A DNA stretch of 63,363 nucleotides, counting the filler, from Craspedostauros australis (Eukaryota), in assembly GCA_030167865.1 (NCBI GenBank). It is 12 parts of 12 records of this genome, joined end to end, with 100 filler letters (N's around TTAATTAATTAA, not from the genome) between each part and the next. Parts side by side here need not be neighbours in the genome. Positions count along the whole stretch, not along the records: positions 36,662 to 42,797 come from JALAGF010003477.1; 11 more parts are not named here. One strand, 5' to 3'. The notes under the pieces are model-generated. The model saw only the letters and a list, made by a program, of their open reading frames with translations, did not search any database and was not told the origin of the DNA. A program made the translations under genes and the position numbers. Below are positions 24,545 through 47,279 of the stretch, in pieces (within the stretch, counting starts at the first letter, position 1; each line of letters opens with the position of its first letter).

Positions 24545-24644
24545 NNNNNNNNNNNNNNNNNNNNNNNNNNNNNNNNNNNNNNNNNNNNTTAATTAATTAA
24601 NNNNNNNNNNNNNNNNNNNNNNNNNNNNNNNNNNNNNNNNNNNN
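24545..24644. other. Artificial contig linker (N44-TTAATTAATTAA-N44); recurs at 28087, 31561, 36562, 42798, 45039, 47280, 50595, 54456, 58068 and 60855
   Basis: Identical 100-bp spacer with stop codons in all six frames. Confidence 0.99.
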
Positions 24645-26753: not shown

Positions 26754-28186
26754 CGTTGTTGTCTCTTTATCTATTGCTCTTCTCCTTTCCTTGGTTTGAT
26801 GTGAGTGATGCTGTTGGTGATGCTGTTGTTGTATTGTGTGGTTGTGGTTGATGATGATGATGATGATGATGGCGAGAATGACGATTCCGATGGTGATGGA
26901 GAAGGGGCGGACAACCACCAACAAAATAACGTGGAAGACAACACGCAAAACCGAAATCTAGTGAACGCACACACGTAAATCAACGCGAAAGGGGAGGAGA
27001 AGCTGGTTTGGTGATGGGCGATTGTGATGTCCTTTGCGTACAGCACGGTACTTGACCTACGTGGCCTTCCTTCGTTGTTTTTTCGATCCAAACGAAAGAA
27101 GAACCCCCATGCTTCGCGACAACCACAAACCACCGCTTGGTCCGTCCTTTGACAGCGCAGCGCTGTACCAACTTCGACAGCGACAACAACAACAGAAACG
27201 ATGGGCATACGCTACAGCACAACAGTAATGCACCATACCGTAAGTGCGCACACACGAGTGCGACAGAAGCGCACAAAAACACCACCACCACAAGGGCGAA
27301 ACGAAGGAACAACACGAACAGCCCAGATCAGGCCAGATCGGAGCACCGTTCCATCACTCTCCATGTACAGTACTGTATTCTACTGCGTTCTACGAGCAGT
27401 TCTGCATGAGAATGCGCGACGATGCTGCTGCGAACCAACCCGCGTTAACGCTCCATAAGCGCGCACAAAACCGATCACAACGTCAACCCGCTCTCGCACT
27501 TGGTTGTCTCCACGCAGTTCGGCGGTTGGAAAGAGAAGGGGGGAAGGAGGGTTCATCGTGCTTGTTCTGTGGGATTGAGGTGTTCGTCTTTCGGTAAACC
27601 CTGTTTCCGCACCAGAGCATCGGTATTCGTGAAGTGCAACCACGGAGGGTTCGCAGGCACAGTTCCTTGTCTTGTTCCTATTCCTGTTTTCCTGTCAACT
27701 CCAGTCGAATGTAGCGCAGCGCAATACAGTGCAGCGAAATGCAGTGTAATAGTGAAGTGTAACAGACTATCCGTGGAGTGTGTACTGGACTGTACGTACC
27801 ATTTAGTACTGCTCGCACATATCGCACACATCGAATGTTCGTTTACCGGTGCCTCCTTGTGTCCTTGTGCGCGTTTCGTGCGTGTCGTTCCATCGTGGGG
27901 AGACTATTCGCGTGCCAAGGGCGAGGTACTGAAACACAGGACGTGCTGAGACGTGGCGTGCTCCACATCAGGGGCTGTTCTTTGGATAACTTCGGCTGTG
28001 TTTGATTGGCGTGCCGACTGAAGGGTTCGCAACCCTGTTCAAGCATCAGTTCGCGTTGTCATTCGTTTCTGTTTCCGCTTAAAGGANNNNNNNNNNNNNN
28101 NNNNNNNNNNNNNNNNNNNNNNNNNNNNNNTTAATTAATTAANNNNNNNNNNNNNNNNNNNNNNNNNNNNNNNNNNNNNNNNNNNN

Positions 28187-30295
28187 AGCTGCTGGAGGCG
28201 TTGCAGCTGCAGTGGTTGGGGTTTGGCCTGCAGCGCCCCCGCAGCCAGGAGCGCGGCGATGTTTGGCTGTGCGGACCCAAGCAATGACTGCCCCAACGCA
28301 CCGTGCTGTCCAAGGAGCAGGGCATCGGCAGCGCTAACAGAACTGCCACCGTTCAGAGCAGCCAAGATGGCCGCTGTTCCACCGCCTGCGGCGGCATTCG
28401 GAATGGCACTCCCGAGGAGGGCGTTGGCCGATTGCTGTGTGGCAGCTGACACAGAATTGGACACGGATGCCGTCTCTGCCGACGACGCATGCTGGTCCGC
28501 CCGAGGTTGCTGTGATTGTTGTTGCTTGTTGGCGGACGCAACGGATGCCGATGAGCCGACTGCGTGCGGTGATGACTTGCGGGCGGAGGGCGCAGCAGTC
28601 TCGGCCATTGCAGCAGAGGCGGCTGTGGCATCGCTGGCCCTCGGCGCTTGTCCTCTCAGCGAGGTGAGAGCAGCCAGCACTGATTGCACGTTGTCCGTCG
28701 ACAGGGCTGCGGCTGGAGGAGCCTTGACTTGCGCCGCTGGAGCGGCAGTTGCAGCGGTCGTGGTACCCCCATTACCACCGCCGCCGCTAGCGAGGAGCGC
28801 CAACAGCGCCGAGGCAGTCGACGGAGCTGCTGCTTGCAACTGAGCTTGAGCCTGGGCTTGCGCTTGTCTCGCTGCTTCCGTCGGGGTTCCGTTCACAGAT
28901 GCGGAGGCCACACTTGGTGATACTGGGGCAACCCGTGACGCATGCGTTGATGGGTTGGCACCGCTTGACGACGTAGCAGGAGCGGGTGCAGGCGATGGAG
29001 CTGGCGGCGATGCCGCGGCTGACAGGATGGCCTGCAGGGACGACAAAGACTGCAGCGCTTGTCCAGACAGGCCGTTGGAGGCGGCTGGCACATCGACGCC
29101 CATTGGCTTGGCGCTGGAAGAGCTCAACGCAGCAGCAGTTGTTGTTGGGGGTGCTGGCGCAGTCGCGGCTGGTGCCGATGCCGAGAGAGCAGCAGCCATG
29201 GAGATGGCGGCCATGCCGTCCATCGCCCGCATGTTGCGAATGGCGTTGATGTCGACACCTCCCATGTTGTTCATGATGCTCATGAGGGTGGATGCAGAGT
29301 GAGAAGTCCCCTGGTTGTTGGCGAGGTTGGTACCGTCTCCGTTGCCGCTGCTGCTGATGTTGCCAGTCGAGCACACGCTGGTCCTCGACCTCTTGCTGCT
29401 GCCGCTGCTGCGCCTGCCGATGGCGGATCGCTTGCCAGTGGCGGCCATGCTGGCAGCCGCAGCAGCAACAGCAGCCGACATGGCCTGTTCGCCGGTTATG
29501 CCTGCCAAGCGCAGGTGATGGCGGCCGTCAGCAGCGATGCTGGGGTGGGATGAATCCATGGAGAAGGCAGCCATGGCAGGGGTGGACGAAAGCGTGGGGC
29601 TGCCTGACGCTGGCGAGGCGGGGCCCTTGATCTTGATGCGCTTCATCTGGTTGCAGAGATCCACGCGTCCCCTGATGAAGTAGGGATGGAAGATGGAGCC
29701 CTTGCCCCTTCCCTTGCGGATGGTGGAGAAGCCCCAGAGGTTGAGCTGTCTCTGGAAGCTCTTGATCTTGGTTTGGTTGAAGAACTTGGGCACTGTGCCA
29801 TTGTGCCATTGTGGCGTTGTGACATTGTGCCAAGCGATGTTATGAGGAGTAGAGTGAGTAATGGAAGGTGACAGGAAGAGAAGGGGTTAGAGCTAGCATG
29901 AAGACGAGAGCGAAGGAGACGCGATTCTCCAAATCATTCTTTTGGCTCTGTTGGTGATGGCTTTGTGCATGAATCTTCATAACGGAAAGGTAAGGTGATG
30001 AAGGCGGGCAGATGACGGCATGGACAGACGAACAAACGAACGAACTCATATCCCCATGCTTCCATGCTTCCATACTTCCATACATGGACTCTATCTATCT
30101 AGCTATCTATCTGTCTGTGTGTGTGTGTGCGCGTGTGAACTCACTGACTTGCTCCACAAAGCTGGTCTTGTCGAAGACCTGAAAGGCGTTGCCCTCTGGC
30201 AACCACGAGACCACCGATGTGTAGTTCTCTTCCTCTGCGTTCATCAGCATCTTGTGGAGCTTCCACGGGAACTGGACTGTGCTGTCTGTCTTCAT
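28187..30295 (-). CDS. HSF gene, redundant/allelic copy 3, 3'-truncated; exons 30295-30145 and 29792-28187
   Basis: Same end points as copy 2; the differences seen are only upstream of the ATG. Confidence 0.9.
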
Positions 30296-31660
30296 CGTTG
30301 TTGTCTCTTTATCTATTGCTCTTCTCCTTTCCTTGGTTTGATGTGAGTGATGCTGTTGGTGATGCTGTTGTTGTATTGTGTGGTTGTTGTTGTTGATGAC
30401 GATGATGATGGCGAGAATGAGGATTCCGACAACGATGGAGAAGGGGCGGACAACCACCAACAAAATAACGTGGAGAACAACACGCAAAACCGAAATCTAG
30501 TGAACGCACACACGTAAATCAACGCGAAAGGGGAGGAGAAGCTGGTTTGGTGATGGGCGGTTGTGATGTCCTTTGTGTACAGCACGGTACTTGGCCTACG
30601 TGGCCTTCCTTCGTTGTTTTTTCGATCCAAACGAAAGAAGAACCCACATGCTTCGCGACAACCACAAAACACCATGGCATACGTTACAGCGCGACAGTAC
30701 TGCACCATACCGTAAGTGCGCACATACGAGTGCGACAGAAGCGCACAAAAACACCACCACCACCACAAGGCGAAACGAAGGAACAACACGAACAGCCCAG
30801 ATCAGGCCAGATCGGAGCACCGTTCCATCACTCTCCATGTACAGTACTGTATTCTACTGCGTTCTACGAGCAGTTCTGCATGAGAATGCGCGACGATGCT
30901 GCTGCGAACCAACCCGCGTTAACGCTCCATAAGCGCGCACAAAACCGATCACAACGTCAACCCGCTCTCGCACTTGGTTGTCTCCACGCAGTTCGGCGGT
31001 TGGAAAGAGAAGGGGGGAAGGAGGGTTCATCGTGCTTGTTCTGTGGGATTGAGGTGTTCGTCTTTCGGTAAACCCTGTTTCCGCACCAGAGCATCGGTAT
31101 TCGTGAAGTGCAACCACGGAGGGTTCGCAGGCACAGTTCCTTGTCTTGTTCCTATTCCTGTTTTCCTGTCAACTCCAGTCGAATGTAGCGCAGCGCAATA
31201 CAGTGCAGCGAAATGCAGTGTAATAGTGAAGTGTAACAGACTATCCGTGGAGTGTGTACTGGACTGTACGTACCATTTAGTACTGCTCGCACATATCGCA
31301 CACATCGAATGTTCGTTTACCGGTGCCTCCTTGTGTCCTTGTGCGCGTTTCGTGCGTGTCGTTCCATCGTGGGGAGACTATTCGCGTGCCAAGGGCGAGG
31401 TACTGAAACACAGGACGTGCTGAGACGTGGCGTGCTCCACATCAGGGGCTGTTCTTTGGATAACTTCGGCTGTGTTTGATTGGCGTGCCGACTGAAGGGT
31501 TCGCAACCCTGTTCAAGCATCAGTTCGCGTTGTCATTCGTTTCTGTTTCCGCTTAAAGGANNNNNNNNNNNNNNNNNNNNNNNNNNNNNNNNNNNNNNNN
31601 NNNNTTAATTAATTAANNNNNNNNNNNNNNNNNNNNNNNNNNNNNNNNNNNNNNNNNNNN

Positions 31661-34600
31661 GTCTCGTCCTGCGTACAAAATTGGCACTTTGGTGAGTCCT
31701 TCTGACCCATCTGGTGCAGCTTCTTGTTCACCCCGACGAAGCCTGACGACCACTTCGATATGAACCGCGTCATCTCTTTGTTCTTCCTCGACGACCGCGC
31801 CTTTTTGTATGTATGCCAGTCCACTTGGGTCAGCTGAGCTTCGTCCCATTGGAACTTCGACGACCAATAGGTCGCAGCTGTCGCCGATTACAGAAGTTCG
31901 TGCAGTTCTCTAGCGTCGACGTGCGAATAATCCGCATTGCGTAGGCGCAAGCACCATCTATCCGTGTCAGTTTCCCAGCGCTTCACCAGCCTTCGATCCG
32001 CTGTATCGGTCCAGAACAGTTTGGCCTGTTCATCGGCCACAACGTTGAGCTGCTCCAGTGTCGTCAGCTTCTTCCCGGTGTCGTCTTGGTGGCCTTTCAT
32101 CCACTCCCACTTCAGGGTCGCTTGGATTTCATGGCGTAGTGAACGGATCTCGGTAAGAATGTCCCAGTCCCGTTGCCCAGGGCGAAGCCCGTCTTCTTGG
32201 GCCTGCAGCATGGCTTGCTTGCCGTCCAGAGCTATAGTGATTTCACACGTCGAGTCCAGGTCTTGCATCAAGACGATCACTGAAAGTGACGCCCATATGC
32301 CAGCCAGCTCGCTTCTGTAGGCGCTTTGGACCTCGGCGGGCCCCGGCACGAACGTCTGGCATTGCAGTCGAGCGCGCGATTCCGCATCGAAGAATATGGA
32401 GGCAGACGTGCCCCTGGAATCCTTGAAGGAACCGTCGCTCACAACGAGCAGACGTCCTTCGCGCGCCGCTTGCACTGCGTCTCGCCATCGCAACTCTCCA
32501 TGGAGATTCTCGATGGGTTCGTATGGCTCTGGTGGCTCCTCGGCCGCCTGCGTCAATCCTAAGTGCCCGTCCCATGTCAACCCAGTGTCCGTAATGATCA
32601 CTGACACCCTCTTGGCGCCCTCTGGGAGCCCTGGTACCGTACCACGGCTGACGTAGGGCTGTCTGCGCGTCCATCGTCGTCGCTGTGGCAGATACCTTCG
32701 AATAGGCTGGGATGCCGTGTCCAGGATAATATTGCTGTAAGGGAACTTCCACCATCTCCAGGTCCCGTCGTCCCTATACCACCTGCCCAGCGGTTCGTGC
32801 AGAAGCAGCCCGTGGAAGCACATAGACTTGCACCAGCGCTGCCATTCTTTCCACCAACCACTTGGAAGCCGGTTGGGCTGCTTTGCCCAGTGTCTGGTGG
32901 CGTTCGAACTCAGGGTGCCGTCGTGGGCGCCTGCCAGAATCCTGGTGCCGTCAGCGGACACCACATCCGACATTCGCAACACTCCAAGCTTCTGTCGGAC
33001 CATGTTCAGGTGGAGCAGTTGTACGCCTTTGATGCGTTGTTGCAACCAGATGTCCATGAGGAATCGATCGCCCACTCGTTGGACTTCCGGAGTGCGCGTC
33101 GTCTCATGAATCGCAATGCGCGTGTCTTGTAGCTGCTTCCATAACCCTGTCACCCAGCAGCTGGTGGCACAGTGGCCTACGCTGTCAAACGGATACTGAA
33201 ACAGGGACTTCCCGAGCCCTAACTCCTCCTTGAGGGCCAGGATGGAACACTTGATCATCTCACCGGTTTGAGTTCCTCGATGCACTTCATCGAATGCCAG
33301 CTGCATTTGCGAAACCAACTGCGCGTTGACAGGGTTGATGATTCCCAATCCTCCGAGCGACGCCGGGCTGTAGACCAGGTCTCGAGGGAAAGTCCTTGAC
33401 ACACCCATTTTTGGCAGCGCTGCCAGGAGCGCCGGCGCCATGACCCATCTCCACTGTTGTTGGGAGAGCTGGGTCATTGGTAATGAATACTCGACCGTCT
33501 TCATAAAGCGTAGAGAAAGCGCCGACCGTGCGTCTTCCGGAGAAATTTGCGCTGTCCGCATACGTCCACCGAAGTCTTCAGCCTTCGCACGCAGCCTTTG
33601 CATCTGTTGCTCTTGATCACCGTCGAAGTCGATGAATACCCCCAGTGTGAACAACGGTTGCTCCATCGTTCTGAAGGGTATCGCTGCCTGCTCTCCGTTG
33701 CCGTCCTCGATCCGAATATCGATCGGCGTGTCCACGTTGTCCCAAGACCACTCGCCGCCGACAAATGCCGGCTGGATGGCCCACCAGGCCGACTTGGCCG
33801 GAACCAGTGCTCCGCCCGTGACTCTCAGTAGGCGACTCCAGTCCTGCACCATGCGTTTGAAGCTTTCCGTGTCTGACCCTTCGTTGTCGACCGTCTCCAG
33901 CCGGACCAAGTCTGTGTCATCCACAAACGCTGATCCCAGCATTGTGATCGCCTCGCCGTCGGGCGTGGGGAGGATGGATGCGTGCCCCAGGGCTTCCATG
34001 GCGTTGAACATCACCGAGCTGATGACTGCCCATATCGCCGGGCCTGCACCGTTGCCTTGACCTATGCCGTGCATGTCGCAGTCCGGTCCTCGACTGTAGG
34101 TTCGCACCGACACCCCGTACGCTGTACTGATGTGATGCTCAGCGTCGCGCAGCGTCTTGAACATGCTCCGAGTGGCTGCTCCGTTCGCGCCTGCCGCCAT
34201 CATGGCGGTAGCTGCGAAGTTCGGAACGATCCTGTCATAGCATGATTTGGCGTCGTTCGAACAGAACGCAATGGCCACCTTCCGCTGGAATCCCAAGTCG
34301 ATACTCATCCTTTTGTTCAGGGCGGCGCTTATCGCCGATCTGCACTTCCTGCTCCCAAATTGAAATCCTGACAACCATCCTGCTGCCTCGGCTGTTTTCA
34401 TCATCTGCTTACCCAGCCTTTTGTTGTTCAAGTTAAACTGGGCATCCATGAGCTGGATCGTCCGCATTTTCTCGATGTTAAACACCTGCGCTTTCTTCAG
34501 AATTTCAACGTCCGTGATACGTTGCCACGGTTTCGGAGAGTGGCCTGTTTGGTAAGGAATGTCTCGTAGCATCGCATCTGCTTGTGCCAGACTCTCTACC

Positions 34601-36561
34601 ATCATCGAGGCCTTGTAGTGGCCAAAGTGTGGAGTGCTCGGCTCCGAGTTGGTGAGCTCGGTTTGCTTCTTCCATGCCTTCTGGTGTTCTTCAGTTGACA
34701 ATTCTGTCACGTCCTGGGCGATGGGTTGTAGCGATTCAAGGAGGATCCTTATCATCGGATCCAGCTCCTTGGGTGAGGTGCCTTCCGCGTTGATAAGCTG
34801 GGACTCCAACTCGGGTCTCCAGATTCGGTCCATGATTTTCTTGTCTCTGCCCGTCATGCACGGGGTACGGTTGGCTTGTGAGAAGCGTTGCTTGTTCTCA
34901 CGGATGCATGCGGTCACGATGTCGTGCTGCTCCGTGCACTCGTGCACTTCTCCCGTGTTGTCGGTGAACAGCACCTTCGTTGTCATTGATTTGTCTTGAC
35001 CGAAGATGGCTCGTAGGCGACCTGCTTGCTCGCGCTGCCGTTCCCGGTTCATGAGCATCTGCAGCGCCGCCTCGTATTCCTGATCGTGGGCGTCGTGACG
35101 CTGTCGTGCTATCTCCACCAAGTGATCTTTCCGAGCTCGTTGGTGTTCCTTCCTCTGCTCGTAGTATGAGGCGTAGGCCTCGGTCCTGCTTTGCTTCACT
35201 TGATCCAGCGACTGTCCTGCCGACAGCCCTACCAGTTTCCTGGTGCGCAGTCGTAAGGACGAGCTGACTTTCACTCCGGATAAATGTTTCACTTCCAGGG
35301 ACCAGTGCTTGATCACGTTCCTCGCGTGCTGCAGCTCTGGTGACCACGCCACGGCTCCCATCTTCAGCTTGCGACACTTCTTTTCTGCGTATCGTCGAAT
35401 CTCGTAGGTCTGGTTCATCAGCTTGTCGTATTTGGTTCGTTGGAGATTAGTCATACTCCACCCCTGCGCTTTCGCTTCCAGCCACACGCTTCTCACTCTG
35501 TCCAGTATATTGTGCTTGCCGTATTCTTCTAGCAGCATATCGTTGTACTTCTGGGTCACTCGTGGATCGCTGAGGACCAGGCACCTTGGCTGTGGCTTCC
35601 TGATGGGCTGGATGCCTGACCCGAGCACCTGTGCGAAGTCGATGTCCACCCAGACCGCTCTGTGGTCCGACGGTATCGCCATCCCAAAACCCAGATAGCC
35701 TGCCTTTTTTAGGAGTACTCCTTCGGACGCGAAGATCACATTGATGGGGACATTGTTGTTGTTTCGTTGCTGCGTTGCCTGCTGGGCAAGCTCCCCAATC
35801 CTGTTTCGTACCGCATTCTTCATTCCCACGGCCTCCAACTGGTGTAGAGTTCGGCTGTCCATGGTGCTGTCGTTGAGGTCCACGCCCAGGATGATGGATT
35901 CGCCTGCGGCCTTCCAGGTCCTTATTTCGTTTGCGATATCCTTGATCCATGCTTCGTGTGGGTCTTCGTCTCTACTGGCCGATGTCAGCGCTCGCACCTG
36001 TTGGGACCAAACTGTGTTCGTCCCTTCCGTCGATCGGCAAGGCCTGTATGCGGCAATGACCCGTAGCCTTTTGTCTCTTTTTCCTTCGGTGAGCGTCCAG
36101 CACCATCTTCCCATCCCACTCTCGTCAATCCCGCTCTTGAATGTGCGTGCGGCGATTTGGGCTGTCACTACCACTCCTGCACCCCCATACATCCTGGGAT
36201 CTCGTCGGTCGTCGTGTGTGTTGTATGCGAAGACATGTTTTGATCTTGGCAGCTGGCGCCGGGTTCGTTCCGACCATTGGTCCTGGGGTCGGACGTGATC
36301 CCACCGTAGGTTCGTTTCTGCCAGGCACAGAATGTCGAGATCGCTCGTCTTTATGAATTCGAAGATCTCTTCATTCTTCTGCTGGTAGGCGTGAATGGGA
36401 ATTTGAGCTGCGTTCTGGAACACAATGCGAATCGTCGCTGTTGTTTTGCTTTCCATCGCATCTCCGCAAGCATCGTTTAGCCTACTCGCGTTCGGTGGGT
36501 TGTCTTGGTCCGCCATCGTCTCCGTTCGCTACTCTGTGGAAGCTGTGGTATGGCTGTGTAG
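31661..36561 (-). mobile_element. Non-LTR retrotransposon ORF2 (APE endonuclease, RT, RNase H, Cys knuckle), resembling diatom Ambal-type elements; both ends cut by contig ends
   Basis: APE: IVFQN, LCLAETN, VIAAYRP, LGVDLND, SDHRAVW. RT: NDAKSCYDRI, GIGQGNGAGP, AFVDDTDL. RNase H: VSDGSF, AYRSELAG, ALDG, KGHQD, NVVADEQAK. Clade assignment is by domain architecture only. Confidence 0.93.
31888..36516 (-). CDS. Retrotransposon ORF2 polyprotein, 1542 aa up to a premature TAA; the frame continues to the contig end at 31661
   Basis: After the TAA at 31888-31890 the same frame reads SATAATYWSSKFQW...VDW...FISKWSSG...KCQFCTQDE. Confidence 0.88.
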   Translation of the reverse strand: MADQDNPPNASRLNDACGDAMESKTTATIRIVFQNAAQIPIHAYQQKNEEIFEFIKTSDLDILCLAETNLRWDHVRPQDQWSERTRRQLPRSKHVFAYNTHDDRRDPRMYGGAGVVVTAQIAARTFKSGIDESGMGRWCWTLTEGKRDKRLRVIAAYRPCRSTEGTNTVWSQQVRALTSASRDEDPHEAWIKDIANEIRTWKAAGESIILGVDLNDSTMDSRTLHQLEAVGMKNAVRNRIGELAQQATQQRNNNNVPINVIFASEGVLLKKAGYLGFGMAIPSDHRAVWVDIDFAQVLGSGIQPIRKPQPRCLVLSDPRVTQKYNDMLLEEYGKHNILDRVRSVWLEAKAQGWSMTNLQRTKYDKLMNQTYEIRRYAEKKCRKLKMGAVAWSPELQHARNVIKHWSLEVKHLSGVKVSSSLRLRTRKLVGLSAGQSLDQVKQSRTEAYASYYEQRKEHQRARKDHLVEIARQRHDAHDQEYEAALQMLMNRERQREQAGRLRAIFGQDKSMTTKVLFTDNTGEVHECTEQHDIVTACIRENKQRFSQANRTPCMTGRDKKIMDRIWRPELESQLINAEGTSPKELDPMIRILLESLQPIAQDVTELSTEEHQKAWKKQTELTNSEPSTPHFGHYKASMMVESLAQADAMLRDIPYQTGHSPKPWQRITDVEILKKAQVFNIEKMRTIQLMDAQFNLNNKRLGKQMMKTAEAAGWLSGFQFGSRKCRSAISAALNKRMSIDLGFQRKVAIAFCSNDAKSCYDRIVPNFAATAMMAAGANGAATRSMFKTLRDAEHHISTAYGVSVRTYSRGPDCDMHGIGQGNGAGPAIWAVISSVMFNAMEALGHASILPTPDGEAITMLGSAFVDDTDLVRLETVDNEGSDTESFKRMVQDWSRLLRVTGGALVPAKSAWWAIQPAFVGGEWSWDNVDTPIDIRIEDGNGEQAAIPFRTMEQPLFTLGVFIDFDGDQEQQMQRLRAKAEDFGGRMRTAQISPEDARSALSLRFMKTVEYSLPMTQLSQQQWRWVMAPALLAALPKMGVSRTFPRDLVYSPASLGGLGIINPVNAQLVSQMQLAFDEVHRGTQTGEMIKCSILALKEELGLGKSLFQYPFDSVGHCATSCWVTGLWKQLQDTRIAIHETTRTPEVQRVGDRFLMDIWLQQRIKGVQLLHLNMVRQKLGVLRMSDVVSADGTRILAGAHDGTLSSNATRHWAKQPNRLPSGWWKEWQRWCKSMCFHGLLLHEPLGRWYRDDGTWRWWKFPYSNIILDTASQPIRRYLPQRRRWTRRQPYVSRGTVPGLPEGAKRVSVIITDTGLTWDGHLGLTQAAEEPPEPYEPIENLHGELRWRDAVQAAREGRLLVVSDGSFKDSRGTSASIFFDAESRARLQCQTFVPGPAEVQSAYRSELAGIWASLSVIVLMQDLDSTCEITIALDGKQAMLQAQEDGLRPGQRDWDILTEIRSLRHEIQATLKWEWMKGHQDDTGKKLTTLEQLNVVADEQAKLFWTDTADRRLVKRWETDTDRWCLRLRNADYSHVDARELHELL

Positions 36562-37590
36562 NNNNNNNNNNNNNNNNNNNNNNNNNNNNNNNNNNNNNNN
36601 NNNNNTTAATTAATTAANNNNNNNNNNNNNNNNNNNNNNNNNNNNNNNNNNNNNNNNNNNNCATACGAGAGTGGAGAAAGGTGAGAGACAAGAGAAAAGA
36701 GAAACGGGGGACCTGGACTTCTGTGCGTCTCTGTGTTCATGTGTCTGTGTGTCCTTGTTTCTGTCTTTCTGTGCTCCCATCTTTCTTCTCCCGTTCCGTG
36801 CGGATCTCAATCTTTGCGGTGTTCCTGTGATACCGGCTCAGCTGTCGCTCATCAATGACATCATCAATGACATCATCGCCGGAACTAACTCCGCCATCAC
36901 TCGTCGCATCGGCTCCACTCTGCAGCCATCGCCACTCCGCGGATCATCAACATCCAACCCCCCAAGATCACACAGGCATCCGCAAACGACTTGGGAGTGA
37001 TGTGATAGAAGTATCATCACGAATGGCCAACATGTCATGACTTTCACAAGTGACACACGCTCTCCCAACAAGCGATGAGTGCCTGGCGACCACATTTTCT
37101 TTGCATCCGACAGCCATCACCAAACAACCAACTCAGACAGCTCAAACCTTTCCGACAATGTACACATCAGCAGAACCGTATTGGTCTTGATTGTGCGGGA
37201 GATCATGCATTGGGTCTTCGCCATCAGGCTCCTTGCGCTTGCACGTACACCTGTGCCTGTGCTTGCATCTATGCCTGCAACTTGCGCTTGTGCTTGCGAT
37301 TTGCCGACCACACACCGCCGCAGTCACAGCCACGGTTGCGGTCACAAACGCAACCACAAGCGCAACCAAGCAGTCTTACAAGATCACGATCATAGCGGAC
37401 GCGCATGATTGGCACAGGTCTTGCACATGTGTAAGTATGCGTGAATGTGCGTACGTTTGTTTGGATTTTTATGTATCTATTCCGTTTTATGTACTGGTGC
37501 TGTATTGTGTATTGTTGAAGGTGGAGGAAACAGACCGAGAAACGCTTCCTTCATGGATGCCGATGACCGACGATGCTACCCGGAATGCGC

Positions 37591-38319
37591 TCAGTCCATC
37601 TTGAAGTCAACCACGTGACAGGCAGCCTCCTCGGCATCTCCCAGACAGTCCGGGTAGCTGGTCACGAGTTCCTTGTACGCCTTGGTGCAGGTCTCCGCCA
37701 TCCTCTGGGTGTAGTCGGCGATGTGGGCCACTGGGGCTGCGCTTTCGTCGTTCTCCTTATCTTCATCCTCGTCCTGCAATCTGCGGCGGGTTCCTGGGTA
37801 GTTGACGCAATAGTTGCAATCGGAGTAATAGACGCAGCAGGTGAACTGCATGACCGCGTCGGTGGTGTGGCACATCTGCGGCACCCATGGCTCGCAGATC
37901 TGCAGACGGCGGCGGTTTCTGTGCTCCTGTGGAGCAACCTCATCGATGGCGGCACCACCGCGCAGGTTGGATGCGTGATGATTGTGCACAGCGGCGCGGA
38001 CGTCACTGGCGTGGTCTGCTGCTTCGTCGAGGTTGCGGCGATCTCCTGGATGGCTGCTTCCCATGTATTGTGGACCACCTGCGAGGATGGTGTCATCGAA
38101 GAGATGGTCGGAACCTTCGCCGGCGCAGGTCTTGATCATCGACTTGATGAGGCCGCGGATGGCTTCCATGCGGTACACAGTGCACTTCTCGTTGGGGAGG
38201 CTTGATGGTGGGCAAGTGACGATGAGTTCGTTGGCGGCAGACACCATGGTGGTGGTTGCTGTCATGTTGAGAATGAATGCAGCGGCGAGGGCGAATCGGG
38301 ACATGGTGAGGAAAGTCAT
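37591..38319 (-). CDS. Secreted 242-aa precursor: signal peptide, RxL-type processing motifs and an internal six-Cys peptide
   Basis: Signal-like MTFLTMSRFALAAAFILNMTATTTMVSA; motifs RRNL, NLRG and RRRLQ twice; 12 Cys arranged 3+6+3; strong codon bias and CAA-rich 5' leader. Confidence 0.85.
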   Translation of the reverse strand: MTFLTMSRFALAAAFILNMTATTTMVSAANELIVTCPPSSLPNEKCTVYRMEAIRGLIKSMIKTCAGEGSDHLFDDTILAGGPQYMGSSHPGDRRNLDEAADHASDVRAAVHNHHASNLRGGAAIDEVAPQEHRNRRRLQICEPWVPQMCHTTDAVMQFTCCVYYSDCNYCVNYPGTRRRLQDEDEDKENDESAAPVAHIADYTQRMAETCTKAYKELVTSYPDCLGDAEEAACHVVDFKMD

Positions 38320-38548
38320 GTTTGCTTACTTTGCTTGTTTGTGTTTGGGTGGTGAGTTGTTGTTGTTGTGTGCTTGTGGTTTGTTGTTGCTCGGCGTTTG
38401 CGAATTATGAGAATAAGGAAGTGATCGAAGTCGATTCAACACATGCTGATCTAACGCTGAGTTGAATGTGATGATGGTGCTGCGCATTAAACAACACACT
38501 ATCCGATGTGATTCTGTACTATGGCTCGTACGAGTACGACTCGGCATG

Positions 38549-38580
38549 GGTTGGTACGTGGGTTGGTACGTGGGTTGGTA
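38549..38580 (+). repeat. 12-bp tandem repeat (GGGTTGGTACGT) x~3
   Basis: Directly visible; lies upstream of the secreted precursor gene. Confidence 0.75.
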
Positions 38581-39000
38581 TGTGAGTTGCAGTGAGTCGA
38601 CATGAGATGGCACCAACGCGAATCCACCTACCTCCTTTACTCCGATACAACCGCCGGCCGAATCCAAACCAAGATGGACGCTGTCCGCGACACTCAACCA
38701 AGAACACAAAGTGAGCATGCAGCGGTGGAGCCACAAGAGAGTGCAGGAGAGGTAGTCGAAGTACCGATGGATGGAGTACCTGAACATCCCCTCCGTCCAA
38801 GATGATACCACACCATACTAATACAACAGTGTAGAGTGGAGTATTTGACTCCTACTTGACTCGCACATGACCAAGACCAAGACCTCACTTTCATCATGTC
38901 TTTTCCTGCTTCGTTCTCGTTTGTGGCCTTGGTCCATCGGCGCCTCGGCAGGTGCGGACGGGTGGCGCCTGCGCGTCCCTTGTCGCTCGCCCCTCCGCTG

Positions 39001-39039
39001 CCATTCACTACCATTCACTACCATTCACTACCATTCACT
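39001..39039 (+). repeat. 10-bp tandem repeat (CCATTCACTA) x4
   Basis: Directly visible. Confidence 0.85.
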
Positions 39040-40340
39040 GCGAACACACGCAGGTAGGCATGGTACACACGTCCTCCACGAGTATCCGCTGCGATCGTGT
39101 CAGGATACTCCTTGATGGCTTGGCCTGCGGAATCGGCATGCGATGAGTGGAGTCAAACGGTGACTTCGTGATCTTGTTTCGCCCCCATCAACATCTATAC
39201 CTTCTTGTTCCTTCGCTGCTCTGCAAGTGTTCTTGTGTCGATGTGTTCTTCCCCAGAAAACAGGAGACGCCAGCACCCCAGCATCCGATTTGTGAGCGAC
39301 TCACAGTCTTGGAGAAGTATGTCTCCCTGTGACGAAGCCAAGAGCAAAATAGCAGCTGTCATCAATAGTCTTTGTACTCCATCAGCCACCACGCATCCGC
39401 TACACACGTATTCGTAGCGACATGGTCCTGTGTCCGAAAACGGCGCCGAATGCGACGCCATCATCTTCGGGAGTGTTACGGACGGTCACTAGTACTCACT
39501 CCTGACGCAGGGTTCTCGTCTCAATAAATCCCATCCGATTGTTGAATGGGGAAGTGTCTTGCATTGGGTTGGAGTGACACAAACTCTTCTATTCGAACAT
39601 CCAGCGCGAGCACAGCAACACTGTTGCCACGCATTGAGTGATGATCGTGTGAATACACTCACGAACAGTTGAGGCGCCAACAGAACTGAATAAAGCGAAG
39701 AAAACTAGTTGCGCCACCCTATCGCGATGCTCTGCCATCACACCACGCACTTTCTCTTACCCACACGCGCGTCGTTTCAGATTATCCATCATGTTCTTCG
39801 CACAGCCGGCCAATCATTGATCGGCAGGTCGATTGCGCTCTTCTCTCGCTCGTTTCTCTGTGGCGCTTCTTCGGTGGAGCTTCGCGGTGGTGTTGTTACT
39901 GATAGACGGCGCTGAAGGGCCGTGGGGTGTCCAACCAGTTCAACCGATCTACGAACGCAGCTGGACGAGCCTATAACACACGAGCAAGCGCAACATTCTC
40001 CAGCCTTGGTGAAATGGATCGGGCTTCACCATGTGACTTCATCATCGGTCTGGGTCTGGCTGAAGCGACAACGAACACGACCGTCGCATCCGATCTGATG
40101 TCCCACACAGCATGGAGGTGCTACGCAAAAGAACGACGATCAGATTCGCCCAGCCGTGTCTACGGTCTTGGATGTGAGATGCCCTCACGATCTTCCGACA
40201 GCCTTCCATCGCGCCAAGAATGAATTGTGTCACCAACTGTACCGCGGATACCCCACATCATGGATGTCGCAAGACCGAGCATGATGGACCATTGTGGAGC
40301 CGCGCTGTTACGAATGCAGAGGTGATTGAGCGCGGAGTGA

Positions 40341-40379
40341 AGCGTGGGGTCGAGCGTGGGGTCGAGCGTGGGGTCGAGC
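40341..40379 (+). repeat. 12-bp tandem repeat (AGCGTGGGGTCG) x3
   Basis: Directly visible. Confidence 0.8.
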
Positions 40380-42327
40380 AGAATAGAGCAGAGCAGAGTA
40401 CCACACGGTATCGCCTCGTATTGTACTACTTCGTGTATACTCGTAATTTGTACTCGCAGGCGGAGAGTGATTTGAGCTTGCGCCTCTTTCATCCAAACAA
40501 CATCGTGTCTGCATGGTCTTGGATATGCAGCTGCCGGAAAGCTCTGCGCTACATAGTGTCGTGGTCTTCCTTCGAGGCAGTAGCCCCTCCAAGAGCTCGC
40601 CTCACTTTACAGTCTTCCACTTTGCTTCACTCCACGAGTATGAACGAGTATGCACATGGAGTACTCTACTCTACTCTACTCTACCCTATTCCGTTCCATT
40701 CTACTCTACGCTAATCAAATCCAATCTTGCTCCCACAATCGCTCATCCAGACGTTCCTGGAGAGACGCCATCCCAGCCGGCCGTGCCATGATGGAAGCGA
40801 CGACTCTGAGAATCCTGAAAATCCCTCTCAGATGCGCGCTGCCTCGGAACCTGGATTTCGTCTGCTCTATGCCATCCTGTTGATTGAGCTGTTGTTCTTG
40901 TTTGCCTATGCTGGGTTTGTTGGCAGAGGTGGCGTCGTCGCATGTGAGATTTCGGCGCTCCGCGACGTTTCAAGAAGGGCTGAAATGCTGCGTTCGTGAT
41001 ACTCGTGTCCGTGCTCTAGTACTCGTTGCGAGCCCACCCAACATCACACGAAAGGAACGGCTAAGTATCATCACTTTTCGGACCCTGCAATTGCCCCTTC
41101 CTCTCTCTCTGCGGTCGATTCGAGCCCGGTGCCGCGATCGGCTTCGTACTCGATGTGTGCCACCGTGACGTCAAGGCCCTCCACATCGGATCAGTGCGAC
41201 GGAGCGTGAGGACTCGCACGAGCAAATGAAAGCAAGAGCAGGACAAATGGGAGGAATGGAGGGTGAAGTGTAGCAACATACGGGCACAATTTAGCAGTTG
41301 ATGATGAAGCTCGGCAATTTGTGAGGCTGCGTTGTGTCATCAGGTGGCTCGGGTGTTCTTTCGTGCAAAACGAGCGTGCGCGGTTTTCCAAAATGATCCA
41401 GTCGTGCATATTGATTGAGTTGCAAATAACGGTCAAATAACGACAAGTTCTAGAATGAAGCGTGTTCGTGAATTGGTTCTGTCCGATAAATATATGTCCG
41501 AAAATACTTCGGTGCAACATAGTAGTTGAAGTTCACTTAAGAACAGACTATTTTCCATATTAGTGTGTTTCATAACATTTCCTGAAATTCACTTTTGGCG
41601 CAAAATCTTCCGACCCCAACAACAGCAATAATCCTCCTTTCTCTTCTTCCCCCTTTTCATTCATGGACCATCACTGACTCAACAACACAATTGCCTTGAT
41701 CCAAGTCATCCTGGGAACTATATGCTCCCAGGATCCTTGTATTGCAACTTGTCTTGATTCCCTTGTCAGCTATAGCACCTGCTTTCACTACATGGCCATA
41801 GCAAGGAGATCAAACCTGATTCAACACAATCAGGGAATCCAACTGAAAATTCCAATCTCCAACCTGCTGTGTCTTCACTTGCAACCTCAACAAGATTTCA
41901 AGCTCTTGTACTTCAATGCTGGAAGACTACTGCAGATGGAGAGATCAAAGAGAACAAGGAGTATTGTCCGTCCTCAACACTGAACCACTGAGGGTCAGTG
42001 AGGAGCCACACCAACTGTCTGAACACTGTTTCTTCATCCCAACAACAACATCTGATCAAATCATAATCACACATCCATCTAATTGAAATAGCACACTTCA
42101 AGATCAGTACAACCAGCACTACTTGATTCATCATTAATAATACTACTTCCCAGGCCCTCACCCCTTGCGAACTGCATCAAATGGTTTCTTCAAAACTGGC
42201 AGTCAGCTAGGCCTTCCTTTCTAGATTGTGTCACAACAGTACACAAAATCCAACTCAACGATACACATGCATCCAAGTTGCTGTTGCTAAGACGGTTTCT
42301 GGTGTACAGTATTCTGGGGTAGAACTA

Positions 42328-42449
42328 TGTTAGAACAAAAATCAAAGAGGGGATTCCGCACTGAAACATAGAGTGGTCAGATTGTTGTTGTTAGAACGAA
42401 ATCGAAGATGGGATTCCGCACCGAAACGTAGAGTGATCAGATCGTTGTT
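42328..42449 (+). repeat. About 61-bp tandem duplication starting TGTTAGAAC (possible LTR terminus); first copy CpG-decayed
   Basis: Copies start at 42328 and 42389 and differ mainly by CpG to TpG/CpA changes. Confidence 0.7.
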
Positions 42450-42897
42450 GGGGTGAGGATGAGTGTTTGTATTAGAGTGTTATTCGTATGGTAGTATGGA
42501 TGCAGTCGAGCTCACAAGATTGTTATCTTGGAACTGTGAGCATGAGAGAGACATGACAGGTCTCATGCAAATTGCAAGTGAAATTAACACGGAGACAACA
42601 CGNNNNNNNNNNNNNNNNNNNNNNNNNNNNNNNNNNNNNNNNNNNNNNNNNNNNNNNNNNNNNNNNNNNNNNNNNNNNNNNNNNNTCTTCTCACGATGTT
42701 GCTAGTAGTACGATCACACGATTGATCGTATTCACTTGAGAAGGTCAGGACAAGATTCGCACGTGTCACACCCAAGATCCAAGTCTGTCCTGATTGGNNN
42801 NNNNNNNNNNNNNNNNNNNNNNNNNNNNNNNNNNNNNNNNNTTAATTAATTAANNNNNNNNNNNNNNNNNNNNNNNNNNNNNNNNNNNNNNNNNNNN

Positions 42898-45038
42898 GCG
42901 CAGATCCTTTTCCAGGATTTTGTTCTTGCCGGCCGGAAGTAGAGCAGCTCTCCGGTGAACGGCTACTACCCGTTGCTCGCCCATGCGGGATGCAAACAGG
43001 CACGCACACCAGCGTTGCATCTCCGCTACAAACTGCCTCAACCCAAGTGCAGTTCACAGAGCCGGATCGTTTCATGACGTCAACGACGGTCCCGCTCCGT
43101 GCAAATGCACTTGCAGGGTCTCGCGACAGCGAATGGCGCCAACGAATTCACGGTCAGTGTGATCTAGGTGCCAACGTTTGCGCGACTCCACATGCGCGTC
43201 TCCTCAGTGACTATACCGCGTTTACTACTCCTTCCAGCCTTGAGGCAGCGGACTCGTCTTCGCCTGCTATGGAGTGCCCGGGAGAAGGGTACATGCGGAT
43301 ATCATGTGGTGGCGGCGCGCATCTTTCGGTGCACACTCTTCTGTGCCCACGACTGGCTGACACGCTTGTGTCGCCACAATCCATCATCAAGCAATGTGAC
43401 AACCCGTACACCAGCTTTGGCATCGAATCCACCCAGCACAGTGCTCACATCGTCTTCAAGTCACCAGATAACAATCTTCGAGTGCCGCTGTACATTCGCA
43501 ACGGTCTATACTTCTTCGGAGGCGTTCGTCCGCGTGCCATGACCTTGAGACAGGCCTCGCCTATGCTCCTGTCGGAACTTTGGCATCTACGACTTGGACA
43601 TGTGGGCATGGCGCAGCTGCAGAAGCTTTCTAAGTGCTCCACTGGTATTCCGGCATCTGTTACACGGCACATTCACCCACTTCGACACTGTGACACGTGC
43701 AGCAAGGCAGGATATCAACATGCCACACGAGGCCCCAATGACACGGCTACAGCCAACGTCGCTGGCGCTAGGTTTCACGTCGACTTTGGGTTCATGAGGG
43801 CCACTGACGATGCGTACGGCCAGCGCAAGAAGTCCCAAAGCGCTCAACGGGTCATCCACTCCGTCGATGGGTTTTGCGCGTACCTTCTTGTGGTCGATGC
43901 GTGTACATGCTATGTGTGGGTGTTTCTTACCAAGGACAAATCCCCACCCATCATGGCTGTACGACAGACCCTGACTATTTTTGGGCGCCGCGAGGGCTAT
44001 CGTGCGGTTCGTGTCGACTTGGGCGGTGAGCTGGCCAGGTCCAGTCAGTTTGGTACCATGGTCCAGGAATGTGGATACAACGTTGAACCTACTGGAGCAG
44101 ATTGCGCATGGATGAATGGGAAAGTGGAACGGCTGAACAAGACCTTTGGCACCATGGTGAGGGCGCTACTTTACTCGTCCGGGCTCACACCTGACTTCTG
44201 GTCCAAGGCGTTGACTCATGCAGTGTACCTCAAGAATCGACTTCATCATTCTACACTTGGAAGAACGCCGTATGAGGCTCAACATGGTGTCGCGCCAGAC
44301 CTCAGTCATCTCCGTGTGTTTGGTGCACGAGTCACTGTGAAGAAGCCTGGCAAGGCTGCCGCAAAGCTCGACGTTCATACATACGATGGCATCTTCGTTG
44401 GGCACACAGCTACGGCGTCAGTGCATGAGTACTACGATATCAACTCTGGAAGATTCAAGCGGGCTGGCAACATTGTCTTTGATGAGGCACACTACATGTC
44501 TTCCAACAGACCTCCAGGGCCAGCGTTGCTGTACGATCTGGGACTCCCCACACCTGCTGTGGAACCAACGCCAAGCAAGATCATTACCAAGCCTGTGTAC
44601 CCCACCATCGTCACAAGGCATGCCAAGATTCCGGCGACGGCGTGTGCGATACCGCTTCCGTTGGGAGACATCCTCGATCATTCGCATGTCCATGCCTCTG
44701 CTGCAAGGTGCACAGAAACTGGACAAGTCGATATCGTGCATGTTGACACGACCGATGAACCGTTTGGGTATCCATTCAGCCAAAGTGTGGACGTGCGTGG
44801 TACGGACGGCCTCCTTGGGTTCGAGTTTCGGTATGATGAGCAACGGCATCGGCTTCAGCTTCAACAGTGCAAGTCAGGTCAACCGGCTGCACGTATCACG
44901 CGATGGCGGTCCAGGCTGCGCAAGGCGCACCTCATTTCAATTCAAGGTCAACAGGTGCATACAGCCATGGACGCGCGGCAAGCCATACAGGCCTTGCGTG
45001 AACAACGTGTTACCACTGCAGAGTTTGTGTTCGCATTC
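42898..45038 (+). mobile_element. Ty1/copia (CoDi-type) LTR retrotransposon pol fragment: protease, GAG-pre-integrase, integrase, SH3-like and PDZ-like domains; variant A
   Basis: Frame is open across the contig. Motifs: DLGAN (protease), LWHLRLGH...CDTC (HHCC), FHVDFG, RVDLGGE, NGKVERLN (DDE), HLRVFG and GIFVGH. Protease directly followed by integrase is the copia domain order. Confidence 0.93.
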
Positions 45039-45138: not shown

Positions 45139-47279
45139 GCGCAGATCCTTTTCCAGGATTTTGTTCTTGCCGGCCGGAAGTAGAGCAGCTCTCCGGTGAA
45201 CGGCTACTACCCGTTGCTCGCCCATGCGGGATGCAAACAGGCACGCACACCAGCGTTGCATCTCCGCTACAAACTGCCTCAACCCAAGTGCAGTTCACAG
45301 AGCCGGATCGTTTCATGACGTCAACGACGGTCCCGCTCCGTGCAAATGCACTTGCAGGGTCTCGCGACAGCGAATGGCGCCAACGAATTCACGGTCAGTG
45401 TGATCTAGGTGCCAACGTTTGCGCGACTCCACATGCGCGTCTCCTCAGTGACTATACCGCGTTTACTACTCCTTCCAGCCTTGAGGCAGCGGACTCGTCT
45501 TCGCCTGCTATGGAGTGCCCGGGAGAAGGGTACATGCGGATATCATGTGGTGGCGGCGCGCATCTTTTGGTGCACACTCTTCTGTGCCCACGACTGGCTG
45601 ACACGCTTGTGTCGCCACAGTCTATCATCCGACAACGTGACAACCCATACAACAGCTTCGGCATTGAATCCACCCGACACAATGCTCACATCGTCTTCAA
45701 GTCTCCAGATAACAATCTTCGAGTGCCGCTGTACATTCGCAACGGTCTGTACTTCTTCGGAGGCGTTCGTCCGCGTGCCATGACCTTGAGACAGGCCTCG
45801 CCTACGCTCCTGTCGGAACTTTGGCATCTACGACTTGGACATGTGGGCATGGCGCAGCTGCAGAAGCTTTCCAAGTGCTCCACCGGTATTCCGGCATCTG
45901 TTACACGGCACATTCACCCACTTCGACACTGTGACACGTGCAGCAAGGCAGGATATCAACATGCCACACGAGGCCCCAATGACACGGCTACAGCCAACGT
46001 CGCTGGCGCTAGGTTTCACGTCGACTTTGGGTTCATGAGGGCCACTGACGATGCGTACGGCCAGCGCAAGAAGTCCCAAAGCGCTCAACGGGTCATCCAC
46101 TCCGTCGATGGGTTTTGCGCGTACCTTCTTGTGGTCGATGCGTGTACATGCTATGTGTGGGTGTTTCTTACCAAGGACAAATCCCCACCCATCATGGCTG
46201 TACGACAGACCCTGACTATTTTTGGGCGCCGCGAGGGCTATCGTGCGGTTCGTGTCGACTTGGGCGGTGAGCTGGCCAGGTCCAGTCAGTTTGGTACCAT
46301 GGTCCAGGAATGTGGATACAACGTTGAACCTACTGGAGCAGATTGCGCATGGATGAATGGGAAAGTGGAACGGCTGAACAAGACCTTTGGCACCATGGTG
46401 AGGGCGCTACTTTACTCGTCCGGGCTCACACCTGACTTCTGGTCCAAGGCGTTGACTCATGCAGTGTACCTCAAGAATCGACTTCATCATTCTACACTTG
46501 GAAGAACGCCGTATGAGGCTCAACATGGTGTCGCGCCAGACCTCAGTCATCTCCGTGTGTTTGGTGCACGAGTCACTGTGAAGAAGCCTGGCAAGGCTGC
46601 CGCAAAGCTCGACGTTCATACATACGATGGCATCTTCGTTGGGCACACAGCTACGGCGTCAGTGCATGAGTACTACGATATCAACTCTGGAAGATTCAAG
46701 CGGGCTGGCAACATTGTCTTTGATGAGGCACACTACATGTCTTCCAACAGACCTCCAGGGCCAGCGTTGCTGTACGATCTGGGACTCCCCACACCTGCTG
46801 TGGAACCAACGCCAAGCAAGATCATTACCAAGCCTGTGTACCCCACCATCGTCACAAGGCATGCCAAGATTCCGGCGACGGCGTGTGCGATACCGCTTCC
46901 GTTGGGAGACATCCTCGATCATTCGCATGTCCATGCCTCTGCTGCAAGGTGCACAGAAACTGGACAAGTCGATATCGTGCATGTTGACACGACCGATGAA
47001 CCGTTTGGGTATCCATTCAGCCAAAGTGTGGACGTGCGTGGTACGGACGGCCTCCTTGGGTTCGAGTTTCGGTATGATGAGCAACGGCATCGGCTTCAGC
47101 TTCAACAGTGCAAGTCAGGTCAACCGGCTGCACGTATCACGCGATGGCGGTCCAGGCTGCGCAAGGCGCACCTCATTTCAATTCAAGGTCAACAGGTGCA
47201 TACAGCCATGGACGCGCGGCAAGCCATACAGGCCTTGCGTGAACAACGTGTTACCACTGCAGAGTTTGTGTTCGCATTC
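45139..47279 (+). mobile_element. Same copia pol fragment, variant B
   Basis: Identical end points and length to variant A; differences are clustered in one patch of about 320 bp. Confidence 0.93.

Follow-up and report, generated by a model that had tools for sequence, protein, structure and literature searches.

Locus and coding sequence

The window analyzed here, by which we mean the whole stretch of DNA of 63,363 nucleotides from Craspedostauros australis (GCA_030167865.1), carries on its minus strand, at positions 37591-38319, a coding sequence of 242 amino acids plus a stop codon for which an intron is unnecessary. It has two full-length relatives, and an identical predicted protein is found in a public collection; it is an intact, real gene, and belongs to an apparently undescribed small family. 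The GC3 value of the reading frame is 0.73, as compared to 0.64-0.85 for three genes of the window that were identified through Pfam. A 210-residue open reading frame (ORF) that overlaps it on the plus strand has a GC3 of 0.61 and was rejected as a shadow frame, the relatives aligning to the minus-strand frame.

The gene is located on a 5.9-kb piece (36662-42602) on which no other convincing ORF was found. The window itself is a concatenation of separate pieces, and at each of its 11 joints the fixed 12-mer TTAATTAATTAA stands between two runs of 44 N (one 12-mer is at 24589-24600, with ten further copies elsewhere). Since the pieces were joined artificially, gene order across the joints, and with it the neighboring retroelements and genes, is without biological meaning.

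The other pieces hold features of various kinds. A Gln/Ala-rich ORF region with no Pfam match is present in three copies of 99-100% identity (1-2201, 24645-27134 and 28187-30673), which are probably redundant or allelic assembly pieces. An uninterrupted ORF of 1,542 residues (31888-36516, minus strand), in which an endonuclease domain is followed by reverse-transcriptase/RNase H-like motifs recognized by eye (no Pfam RT match), is probably an intact non-LTR retrotransposon, and a copia-type LTR retrotransposon (GAG-pre-integrase and SH3) is represented by two stretches of 99% identity (42898-45038 and 45139-47279, plus strand), each truncated at the end of a piece. The plus strand also carries a CPSF100-like gene (3463-6633), a dynamin-family GTPase-domain gene (47583-49673), a Spo11/topoisomerase VI A homologue with a long N-terminal extension (51682-53541), and an ORF that by eye is ABC-transporter-like, with no good Pfam match (17268-18686). 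Two minus-strand ORFs of similar layout on one piece (7523-8713 and 12142-13440) have weak TPR matches and are probably paralogues of a TPR-like family. Lastly, an exact direct repeat of 834 bases (54556-55389 and 57234-58067) flanks, within one piece, an ORF that was recognized by eye as MATH/BTB-like (55564-56829); these may be terminal repeats, or the assembly may have created them.

The N-terminus of the 242-residue protein is a short basic stretch followed by a hydrophobic one, with hydropathy values of 1.1-1.8 over residues 1-36, and both relatives have similar N-termini, hydrophobic in all three proteins when hydropathy and alignment are judged by eye. Residues 1-28 (38236-38319, minus strand) are a probable ER signal peptide, whose cleavage site was placed by eye. 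In plastid-targeted proteins, Phe occupies position +1 after the signal peptide; plastid targeting was set aside because Phe is absent at the presumed +1. Inspection of the translation revealed neither an ER-retention tail nor a hydrophobic C-terminus.

A family of three proteins

A phmmer search against 1.84 billion representatives (E<=0.001) retrieved two proteins, namely the query itself and P0002 (225 residues), which is 40% identical to the Craspedostauros protein (E 6e-32). The cluster of P0002 contains an N-terminally longer copy whose source name is Stauroneis constricta (MMETSP1352), a raphid pennate diatom. This named cluster mate, P0003, differs from P0002 only by 98 additional residues at the N-terminus, ahead of the signal-peptide-like stretch; the gene call was probably too long. 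With a two-row profile, P0004 (231 residues, E 3e-61), also named Stauroneis constricta, was recovered as well, and a three-row profile, searched over lengths of 123-424 residues with the best 8,000 candidates scored, gave nothing beyond that result. In these searches the family is composed of three proteins at 35-40% identity, two of them Stauroneis constricta paralogues that come from a transcriptome collection, an origin which suggests that the family is expressed in culture.

A word-indexed protein search with the single sequence recovered only the query, Pfam had no family at E<=10 for any of the three proteins, and scans for the locus in metagenome contigs, viral contigs and prokaryote genomes yielded no relative. 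The ESM Atlas offered no usable match for the Craspedostauros protein or P0004, from which neither novelty nor absence follows. A profile search of PDB sequences returned four weak matches that were taken as chance, the best (E 0.037) being to a helix of a sulfhydryl oxidase. Blank searches do not prove rarity, and more distant diatom relatives could fall below the thresholds. A published description of the family was not found in the full-text diatom literature, as followed through titles and the openings of abstracts in a body of text that covers few subscription papers.

Modular organization and RxL sites

The protein carries 12 Cys in a 3+6+3 arrangement (residues 36, 46 and 65; 142, 150, 161, 162, 168 and 171; 211, 225 and 234), and all 12 align in the three proteins. 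The first three lie in what we call the N-half of a scaffold (38041-38235, residues 29-93), modeled as a strand, a helix and one or more further strands, and the last three in its C-half (37594-37722, residues 200-242), modeled as a helix that is amphipathic in all three proteins, a short helix and a strand; the spacings of 9 and 18 residues in the N-half, and of 13 and 8 in the C-half, are kept throughout the family. The six central Cys form a core of 38 residues (37789-37902, residues 140-177; 40 and 41 residues in the relatives) with the pattern C-x7-C-x10-CC-x5/6-C-x2-C. All of these elements, and those that connect them, are read on the minus strand.

Three RxL sites delimit the modules. 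Site 1 (38029-38040) follows the N-half and reads RRNL, with RRAL and RRTL as counterparts in the relatives. Site 2 (37903-37914), RRRL here and xRRL in both relatives, stands directly before the core, and site 3 (37777-37788), RRRL here and RRNL or RRML in the relatives, directly after it. Sites 1 and 2 are separated by a linker of variable length (37915-38028, residues 98-135) in which an LRG motif is found in all three proteins (NLRG at 37957-37968), and site 3 is connected to the C-half by an acidic linker (37723-37776, residues 182-199), also of variable length, within which P0004 has a fourth RxL site, just before the C-half. The distances between Cys blocks are 76, 68 and 54 residues on one side of the core and 39, 32 and 47 on the other. 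The order of modules set out in the original prediction, with two three-Cys domains around RRNL, NLRG, an RRRL-bracketed core and an acidic spacer, is thereby confirmed, on the minus strand. The secreted precursor that was deduced from it, with RxL sites around a six-Cys module, is likewise supported by the probable signal peptide, as judged by eye, and by the RxL brackets, which were looked for in the homologues and are present in both.

These sites exceed by far what composition predicts. In shuffled sequences, RR(x)L is expected approximately 0.06-0.09 times per protein for the three proteins. The Craspedostauros protein has three sites as compared to a shuffle mean of 0.09, and at least three were reached in only one of 20,000 shuffles, a test that is biased by the gene having been picked for its motif. 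The relatives, which are free of that bias, also have three each, a count that was matched by 0 and 1 of 20,000 shuffles, respectively. As background, the window contains six RR(x)L sites in 9,936 residues, counted over 15 ORFs of at least 300 residues, some of which are duplicated or shadow frames.

In the relatives, the P4 residue of the site before the core is Met or Val; the shared pattern is therefore Arg-x-Leu, not Arg-x-x-Leu. By analogy, the Arg-x-Leu pattern may be closer to apicomplexan aspartyl-protease sites than to those of site-1 protease. The Toxoplasma aspartyl protease ASP5 is described as cleaving after the Leu of RRL (PMC4764566). In diatoms, processing of this family is so far predicted from sequence, and the relevant passages of PMC5525289 present the RxL protease as not yet identified; these points would leave room for a secreted protein that is never cut, its RxL motifs being conserved for another reason such as sorting. 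We regard this as very improbable, the least probable of the explanations weighed here, as the sites lie exactly at the module borders in all three proteins, as they do in precursors that are known to be cut.

Sequencing-run contigs over the locus

It is a guess that run X1 represents RNA. Its contigs extend over 37364-37805 and 37983-38870, leaving most of the core uncovered, a gap to which no weight attaches; in the acidic linker they differ from the gene at two single bases, one change being silent and the other replacing Lys by Glu, and they contain almost nothing of 39300-42490. For runs X2 and X3, a simple repeat was the sole match. The upstream X1 contig extends approximately 550 bases beyond the start codon (38320-38870), past eight minus-strand ATGs. 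This same interval contains a 153-residue ORF with no Pfam match that ends seven bases before the start. Coverage of 38320-38870 points either to a long leader or to DNA being contained in X1. Because the contig passes the eight upstream ATGs, its transcriptome-like coverage was not counted as expression.

The six-Cys core

The core Cys residues of the Craspedostauros protein are separated by 7, 10, 0, 5 and 2 residues, and only the fourth loop varies in the family (5-6 residues). In addition to the six Cys at near-fixed spacing, five non-Cys residues are invariant in the three proteins. None of the cores contains a Lys or Arg, and hence none has an internal RxL site; net charges range from -1.6 to -3.2, and each core has 6-7 aromatic residues. 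The first residue is Gln in Craspedostauros and Ser or Asp in the relatives, so that an N-terminal Gln able to cyclize, as had been suggested for the peptide, does not hold as a family trait.

In the original prediction the core was likened to a knottin, and a defensin or toxin was among the proposed products. An excised knottin-type peptide acting against microbes or grazers would fit the secretion and the size, the presence of paralogues in one species, and the six Cys in the order C-C-C(C)-C-C, which is seen in all three cores. The consensus of the inhibitor cystine knot (ICK) is CX3-7 CX3-8 CX0-7 CX1-4 CX4-13 C (PMC4942781), and three of the five loops fall outside it in all three proteins, namely loops 2 (10 residues against 3-8), 4 (5-6 against 1-4) and 5 (2 against 4-13). 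These loop lengths indicate that the core should not be filed as a knottin despite its Cys order. With the core alone as the query, no Pfam match at E<=0.1 and no PDB-sequence match at E<=10 was obtained, short queries being insensitive in such searches.

Composition and variation speak against such a peptide as well. Cationic defensin-like peptides owe a net positive charge to Lys and Arg, and toxin families typically have hypervariable paralogues. Here the core is net negative with no basic residue at all, and the two Stauroneis paralogues share 20 of 32 non-Cys core columns, as compared to 50 of 100 in the scaffold (p=0.23). A knottin-type toxin or defensin thus has a poor fit in loops, charge and paralogue divergence, and we consider it very unlikely. 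Of the expectation that homologues would show conserved flanks and RxL sites around a variable Cys core, the first part stands, since flanks and sites are kept, and the second does not, in that the core is not hypervariable between paralogues.

Between lineages the picture may be different. When the Craspedostauros protein is compared to one relative, non-Cys identity is 5/32 in the core versus 42/100 in the scaffold (p=0.006); for the other relative, the values are 8/32 versus 37/100 (p=0.28). At columns where the paralogues agree, Craspedostauros matches 5 of 20 in the core and 29 of 50 in the scaffold (Fisher p=0.017), and columns that are invariant in all three number 5/32 and 29/100, respectively (p=0.17). 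These five core-versus-scaffold tests are mutually dependent and draw on three sequences, two of which are from one species. Taken on alignment columns, they hint that the core is kept within a species yet drifts between lineages, faster than the scaffold does. Such drift would be unlike that of hypervariable toxin paralogues and compatible with a ligand; the agreement of 5/20 versus 29/50 is what one would expect if a conserved carrier bore a lineage-specific ligand.

The same figures can be turned around. If the two-chain scaffold were the functional product, for example in the cell wall, silica or mucilage, and the core a folding aid or by-product, better conservation of the scaffold between lineages (37-42% versus 16-25% non-Cys identity) would be expected, and the RXL proteins described in the papers cited here are silica-associated, with some of them, such as Sin1 and SiMat7-like proteins, Cys-rich. 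This explanation is nonetheless unlikely. A core with six Cys at near-fixed spacing, five invariant non-Cys positions and such agreement between paralogues is conserved far beyond what the length variation of the linkers would suggest for a spacer, and the Ser/Lys-rich stretch and transmembrane helix of silaffins, Sin1 and SAPs are absent.

A probable split scaffold

A split ferredoxin-like domain had been proposed from the alignment, ahead of any fold search. A single-sequence AlphaFold model was unusable (pTM 0.27), and AlphaFold2 with the mature protein and the three-row alignment reached a pTM of 0.46 with a mean pLDDT of 42.8, a rise that reflects the added alignment and the removed signal peptide together. 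The flanks are the best-predicted parts (pLDDT 51-61 and 62-72), while the core and linkers are mostly below 40. In the model, the N-half is a strand-helix-strand unit, the C-half a helix-helix-strand unit, and the core a hairpin region of low confidence; the scaffold has only three strands and two long helices, and disulfide pairs are not readable. A prediction of the N-half and C-half as a complex, in which the alignment was not used, scored 0.02 and was given no weight in either direction.

Foldseek found no match to the model at E<=0.001. A wide structural search of 48,161 chains yielded 11 with Z>=5, of which not one reached Z 8, the best being 3pjx (Z 5.9, rmsd 3.2, 102 residues aligned), a score within the range that the search tool terms a common arrangement. 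Most of the 50 matches listed belong to what we take to be ferredoxin-like groups (GGDEF, class III cyclases, MTH1187/YkoF, ACT, M20 dimerisation, AcrB and Patched), and a further structural look added only MTH1187 (Z 5.1). In 48 of these 50 matches, the aligned range begins at or before model residue 4 and ends at or after residue 212. Residues 401-508 of Gpr126 are among them (Z 4.4, rmsd 4.8, 98 aligned), a segment whose length and position suggest that it is the SEA domain of PMC6954182. With structural scores in this middling range, the claim is limited to both flanks lying in one alpha/beta domain of the model. The model suggests that the two three-Cys flanks form a single split ferredoxin/SEA-like alpha/beta domain into which the core is inserted as a loop.

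With three Cys in each half and six in the core, pairing between the flanks is the simplest arrangement and agrees with the model; judging from the Cys count, the halves are probably stapled to each other. In this type of fold the first and last strands are antiparallel neighbors and the two helices are antiparallel, an arrangement that allows nested pairs, and its geometry suggests 36-234, 46-225 and 65-211. The earlier proposal that the 3+3 flanking Cys pair as a carrier or folding scaffold thus receives weak support.

Proposed processing and role

As the core lies between conserved RxL motifs, it is probably cut out. In favor of excision, the 12 Cys and the three RxL positions are kept in all three proteins at 35-40% identity while linker lengths change. 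There is also precedent: mature silaffin-1 peptides are described as lacking the RRIL/RRNL ends, and RXL closes the repeats of frustulins, cingulins and silacidins (PMC4557024). In the portion of PMC5647440 that deals with it, RXL processing is treated as a hypothesis and as found only in biosilica-associated proteins.

We propose an RXL-processed secretory precursor from which the core is excised and its stapled scaffold left behind, a reading to which we give about an even chance. Its hydropathy profile suggests that the signal peptide would bring the precursor into the ER, where the N-half and C-half, distant in sequence, may fold into one split ferredoxin/SEA-like domain and be stapled by disulfides. 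The six-Cys core, in a long loop of this scaffold, would form three disulfides of its own while being held by the scaffold during folding. From the diatom precedents, an RxL endoprotease would then act at each of the three conserved sites, on the C-terminal side of Leu; the RRxL left at the end of the peptide may subsequently be removed, as it is in silaffin-1. Such cuts would free an acidic, aromatic peptide of 38-42 residues with three disulfides and leave a two-chain scaffold held by disulfides. Insulin is likewise a two-chain product, after loss of the C-peptide.

Cleavage could also occur with no release of the core. In that case the linkers would be removed and the core would stay on the scaffold, non-covalently or through mixed disulfides, in a three-chain extracellular or cell-wall protein. 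Cleaved SEA domains are described as remaining associated (PMC6954182), the aromatic-rich core (6-7 of 38-41 residues) could pack on the scaffold, and with the fourth RxL site of P0004 nothing of the acidic linker would remain, as expected if the cuts serve to remove linkers. On the other hand, the number of invariant Cys is even in the core and odd in each flank, making flank-to-flank bonds the simplest solution; both linkers around the core differ considerably in length among the proteins; and in one of the two comparisons, divergence is faster for the core than for the scaffold. We view retention of the core as doubtful, although it deserves more weight than the other alternatives discussed above.

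If the core is excised and released, the likeliest single role of the freed peptide would be that of an extracellular ligand in cell-cell signaling or recognition, and the scaffold would help it to fold or carry it. We advance this tentatively, on the basis of the acidic-aromatic composition of the core and its lineage-specific drift. Many pheromone precursors carry repeated copies of their peptide, whereas the core occurs only once in this gene, a difference that counts against a ligand role.

The family could nevertheless be informative in several respects. RXL processing has so far been described for silica proteins, and these precursors could show whether the same protease also makes signaling peptides; a defined peptide of predictable mass between conserved RxL sites offers a clean three-site substrate with which to find that protease. 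For the Craspedostauros core, the calculated monoisotopic mass in reduced form is 4411.76 for the 38-mer and 4993.15 for the 42-mer that retains RRRL; three disulfides would lower these values by 6.05, and pyroglutamate by 17.03. The nesting of a peptide within a split, stapled domain and the six-Cys spacing outside the ICK range could each represent a new structure. Diatom sex pheromones include a disulfide peptide, for which the relevant portions of two reviews name no precursor gene (PMC12352721, PMC12843257). If the protein is only nicked, it would represent a modest new extracellular family.

Comparison with known systems

The closest comparison is to the RXL-processed diatom precursors, which include Sil1p (silaffin-1), silacidins, cingulins, frustulins, Sin1, SiMat7-like proteins and SAPs (PMC4557024, PMC5525289, PMC5501833, PMC5647440). 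Like the present protein, for which the signal peptide is a probable one, they have a signal peptide, acidic spacers and module borders marked by RRxL/RxL motifs, and Cys-rich members occur among them, of which Sin1 is described with 18 Cys and SiMat7-like proteins with 8. The Craspedostauros protein differs in having no repeats, no Ser/Lys-rich silica-binding stretch and no transmembrane helix; Ser/Lys-rich or Ser/Asp/Glu-rich repeats of the silaffin type are absent from its translation and from the relatives. It also presents one peptide nested in a split domain, whereas known precursors are strings of units or carry an N-terminal propeptide, and the family searches recovered no sequence relative among them.

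SEA domains (MUC1, Notch NRR, GPR126; PMC6954182) resemble the model in a probable ferredoxin-like fold, in secretion, and in a loop that would here be cut by a basic-site protease with the halves staying together. The structural match is weak (Z 4.4 for Gpr126, and 5.9 for the best of any entry), the loop to be cut appears here to follow the second or third strand and to carry an entire six-Cys module, and the halves hold 3+3 invariant Cys. None of the three proteins had a Pfam SEA match at E<=10 and the alignment has no GSVVV-type motif; a large insertion could hide a profile match.

Among diatom signaling proteins, MRP1 of Pseudo-nitzschia multistriata is described as specific to mating type plus, as carrying a signal peptide and as subject to positive selection (PMC6261938; PMC11749564). 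Its predicted structure, a small sheet with helices, is reported to be similar to SEA and S6 folds, and sexual signaling has been proposed (bioRxiv 10.64898/2026.03.25.714164); the homologues named in that literature are confined to Pseudo-nitzschia, Fragilariopsis and one Nitzschia. Both are small diatom proteins with no known domain; to the signal peptide and SEA-like predicted fold of MRP1 correspond, in the present protein, a probable signal peptide and a low-confidence model that may be SEA-like. No link in sequence was found, profile and library searches having returned only the two Stauroneis proteins, and MRP1 was compared by description only. On the predicted folds, the MRP1 link would be topological only; it is the most interesting lead. 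In Cylindrotheca, taxon-specific secreted proteins are induced by pheromone (bioRxiv 10.1101/2024.04.15.589526), and a likeness of these to the present family is not apparent from their description. SIP+, described as the only peptide pheromone of diatoms whose structure has been solved, is a modified heptapeptide with one disulfide (PMC12843257), as opposed to the six-Cys core described here.

A broader reading is that an exchangeable disulfide-rich peptide, placed between RxL sites on a stapled, split SEA-like scaffold, constitutes a diatom peptide-signal system. What an RxL protease would free is a ligand specific to the lineage, which could serve in mating or recognition; the gene would then belong, as one of its branches, to a larger superfamily with MRP1 as a possible further member. 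We consider this rather unlikely as a whole, and nothing in the sequence analysis ties the gene to mating.

Peptides of the ICK class, such as framework VI/VII conotoxins and spider knottins, share with the core the six-Cys order C-C-CC-C-C, a similar length and release after basic residues, and differ in that their peptide is C-terminal, in loops 2, 4 and 5, and in the hypervariability of paralogues. The likeness to other precursors is one of logic only: plant RALF is a disulfide peptide released at an RRXL site, and PawS1/SFTI-1 combines, in one precursor, a buried peptide and an albumin of two disulfide-linked chains. These systems and proinsulin have no sequence or Pfam similarity to the family, and other Cys patterns and folds. 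What is new here is probably a variant of the RXL-processed diatom precursor, in which the peptide is nested in a probable split domain.
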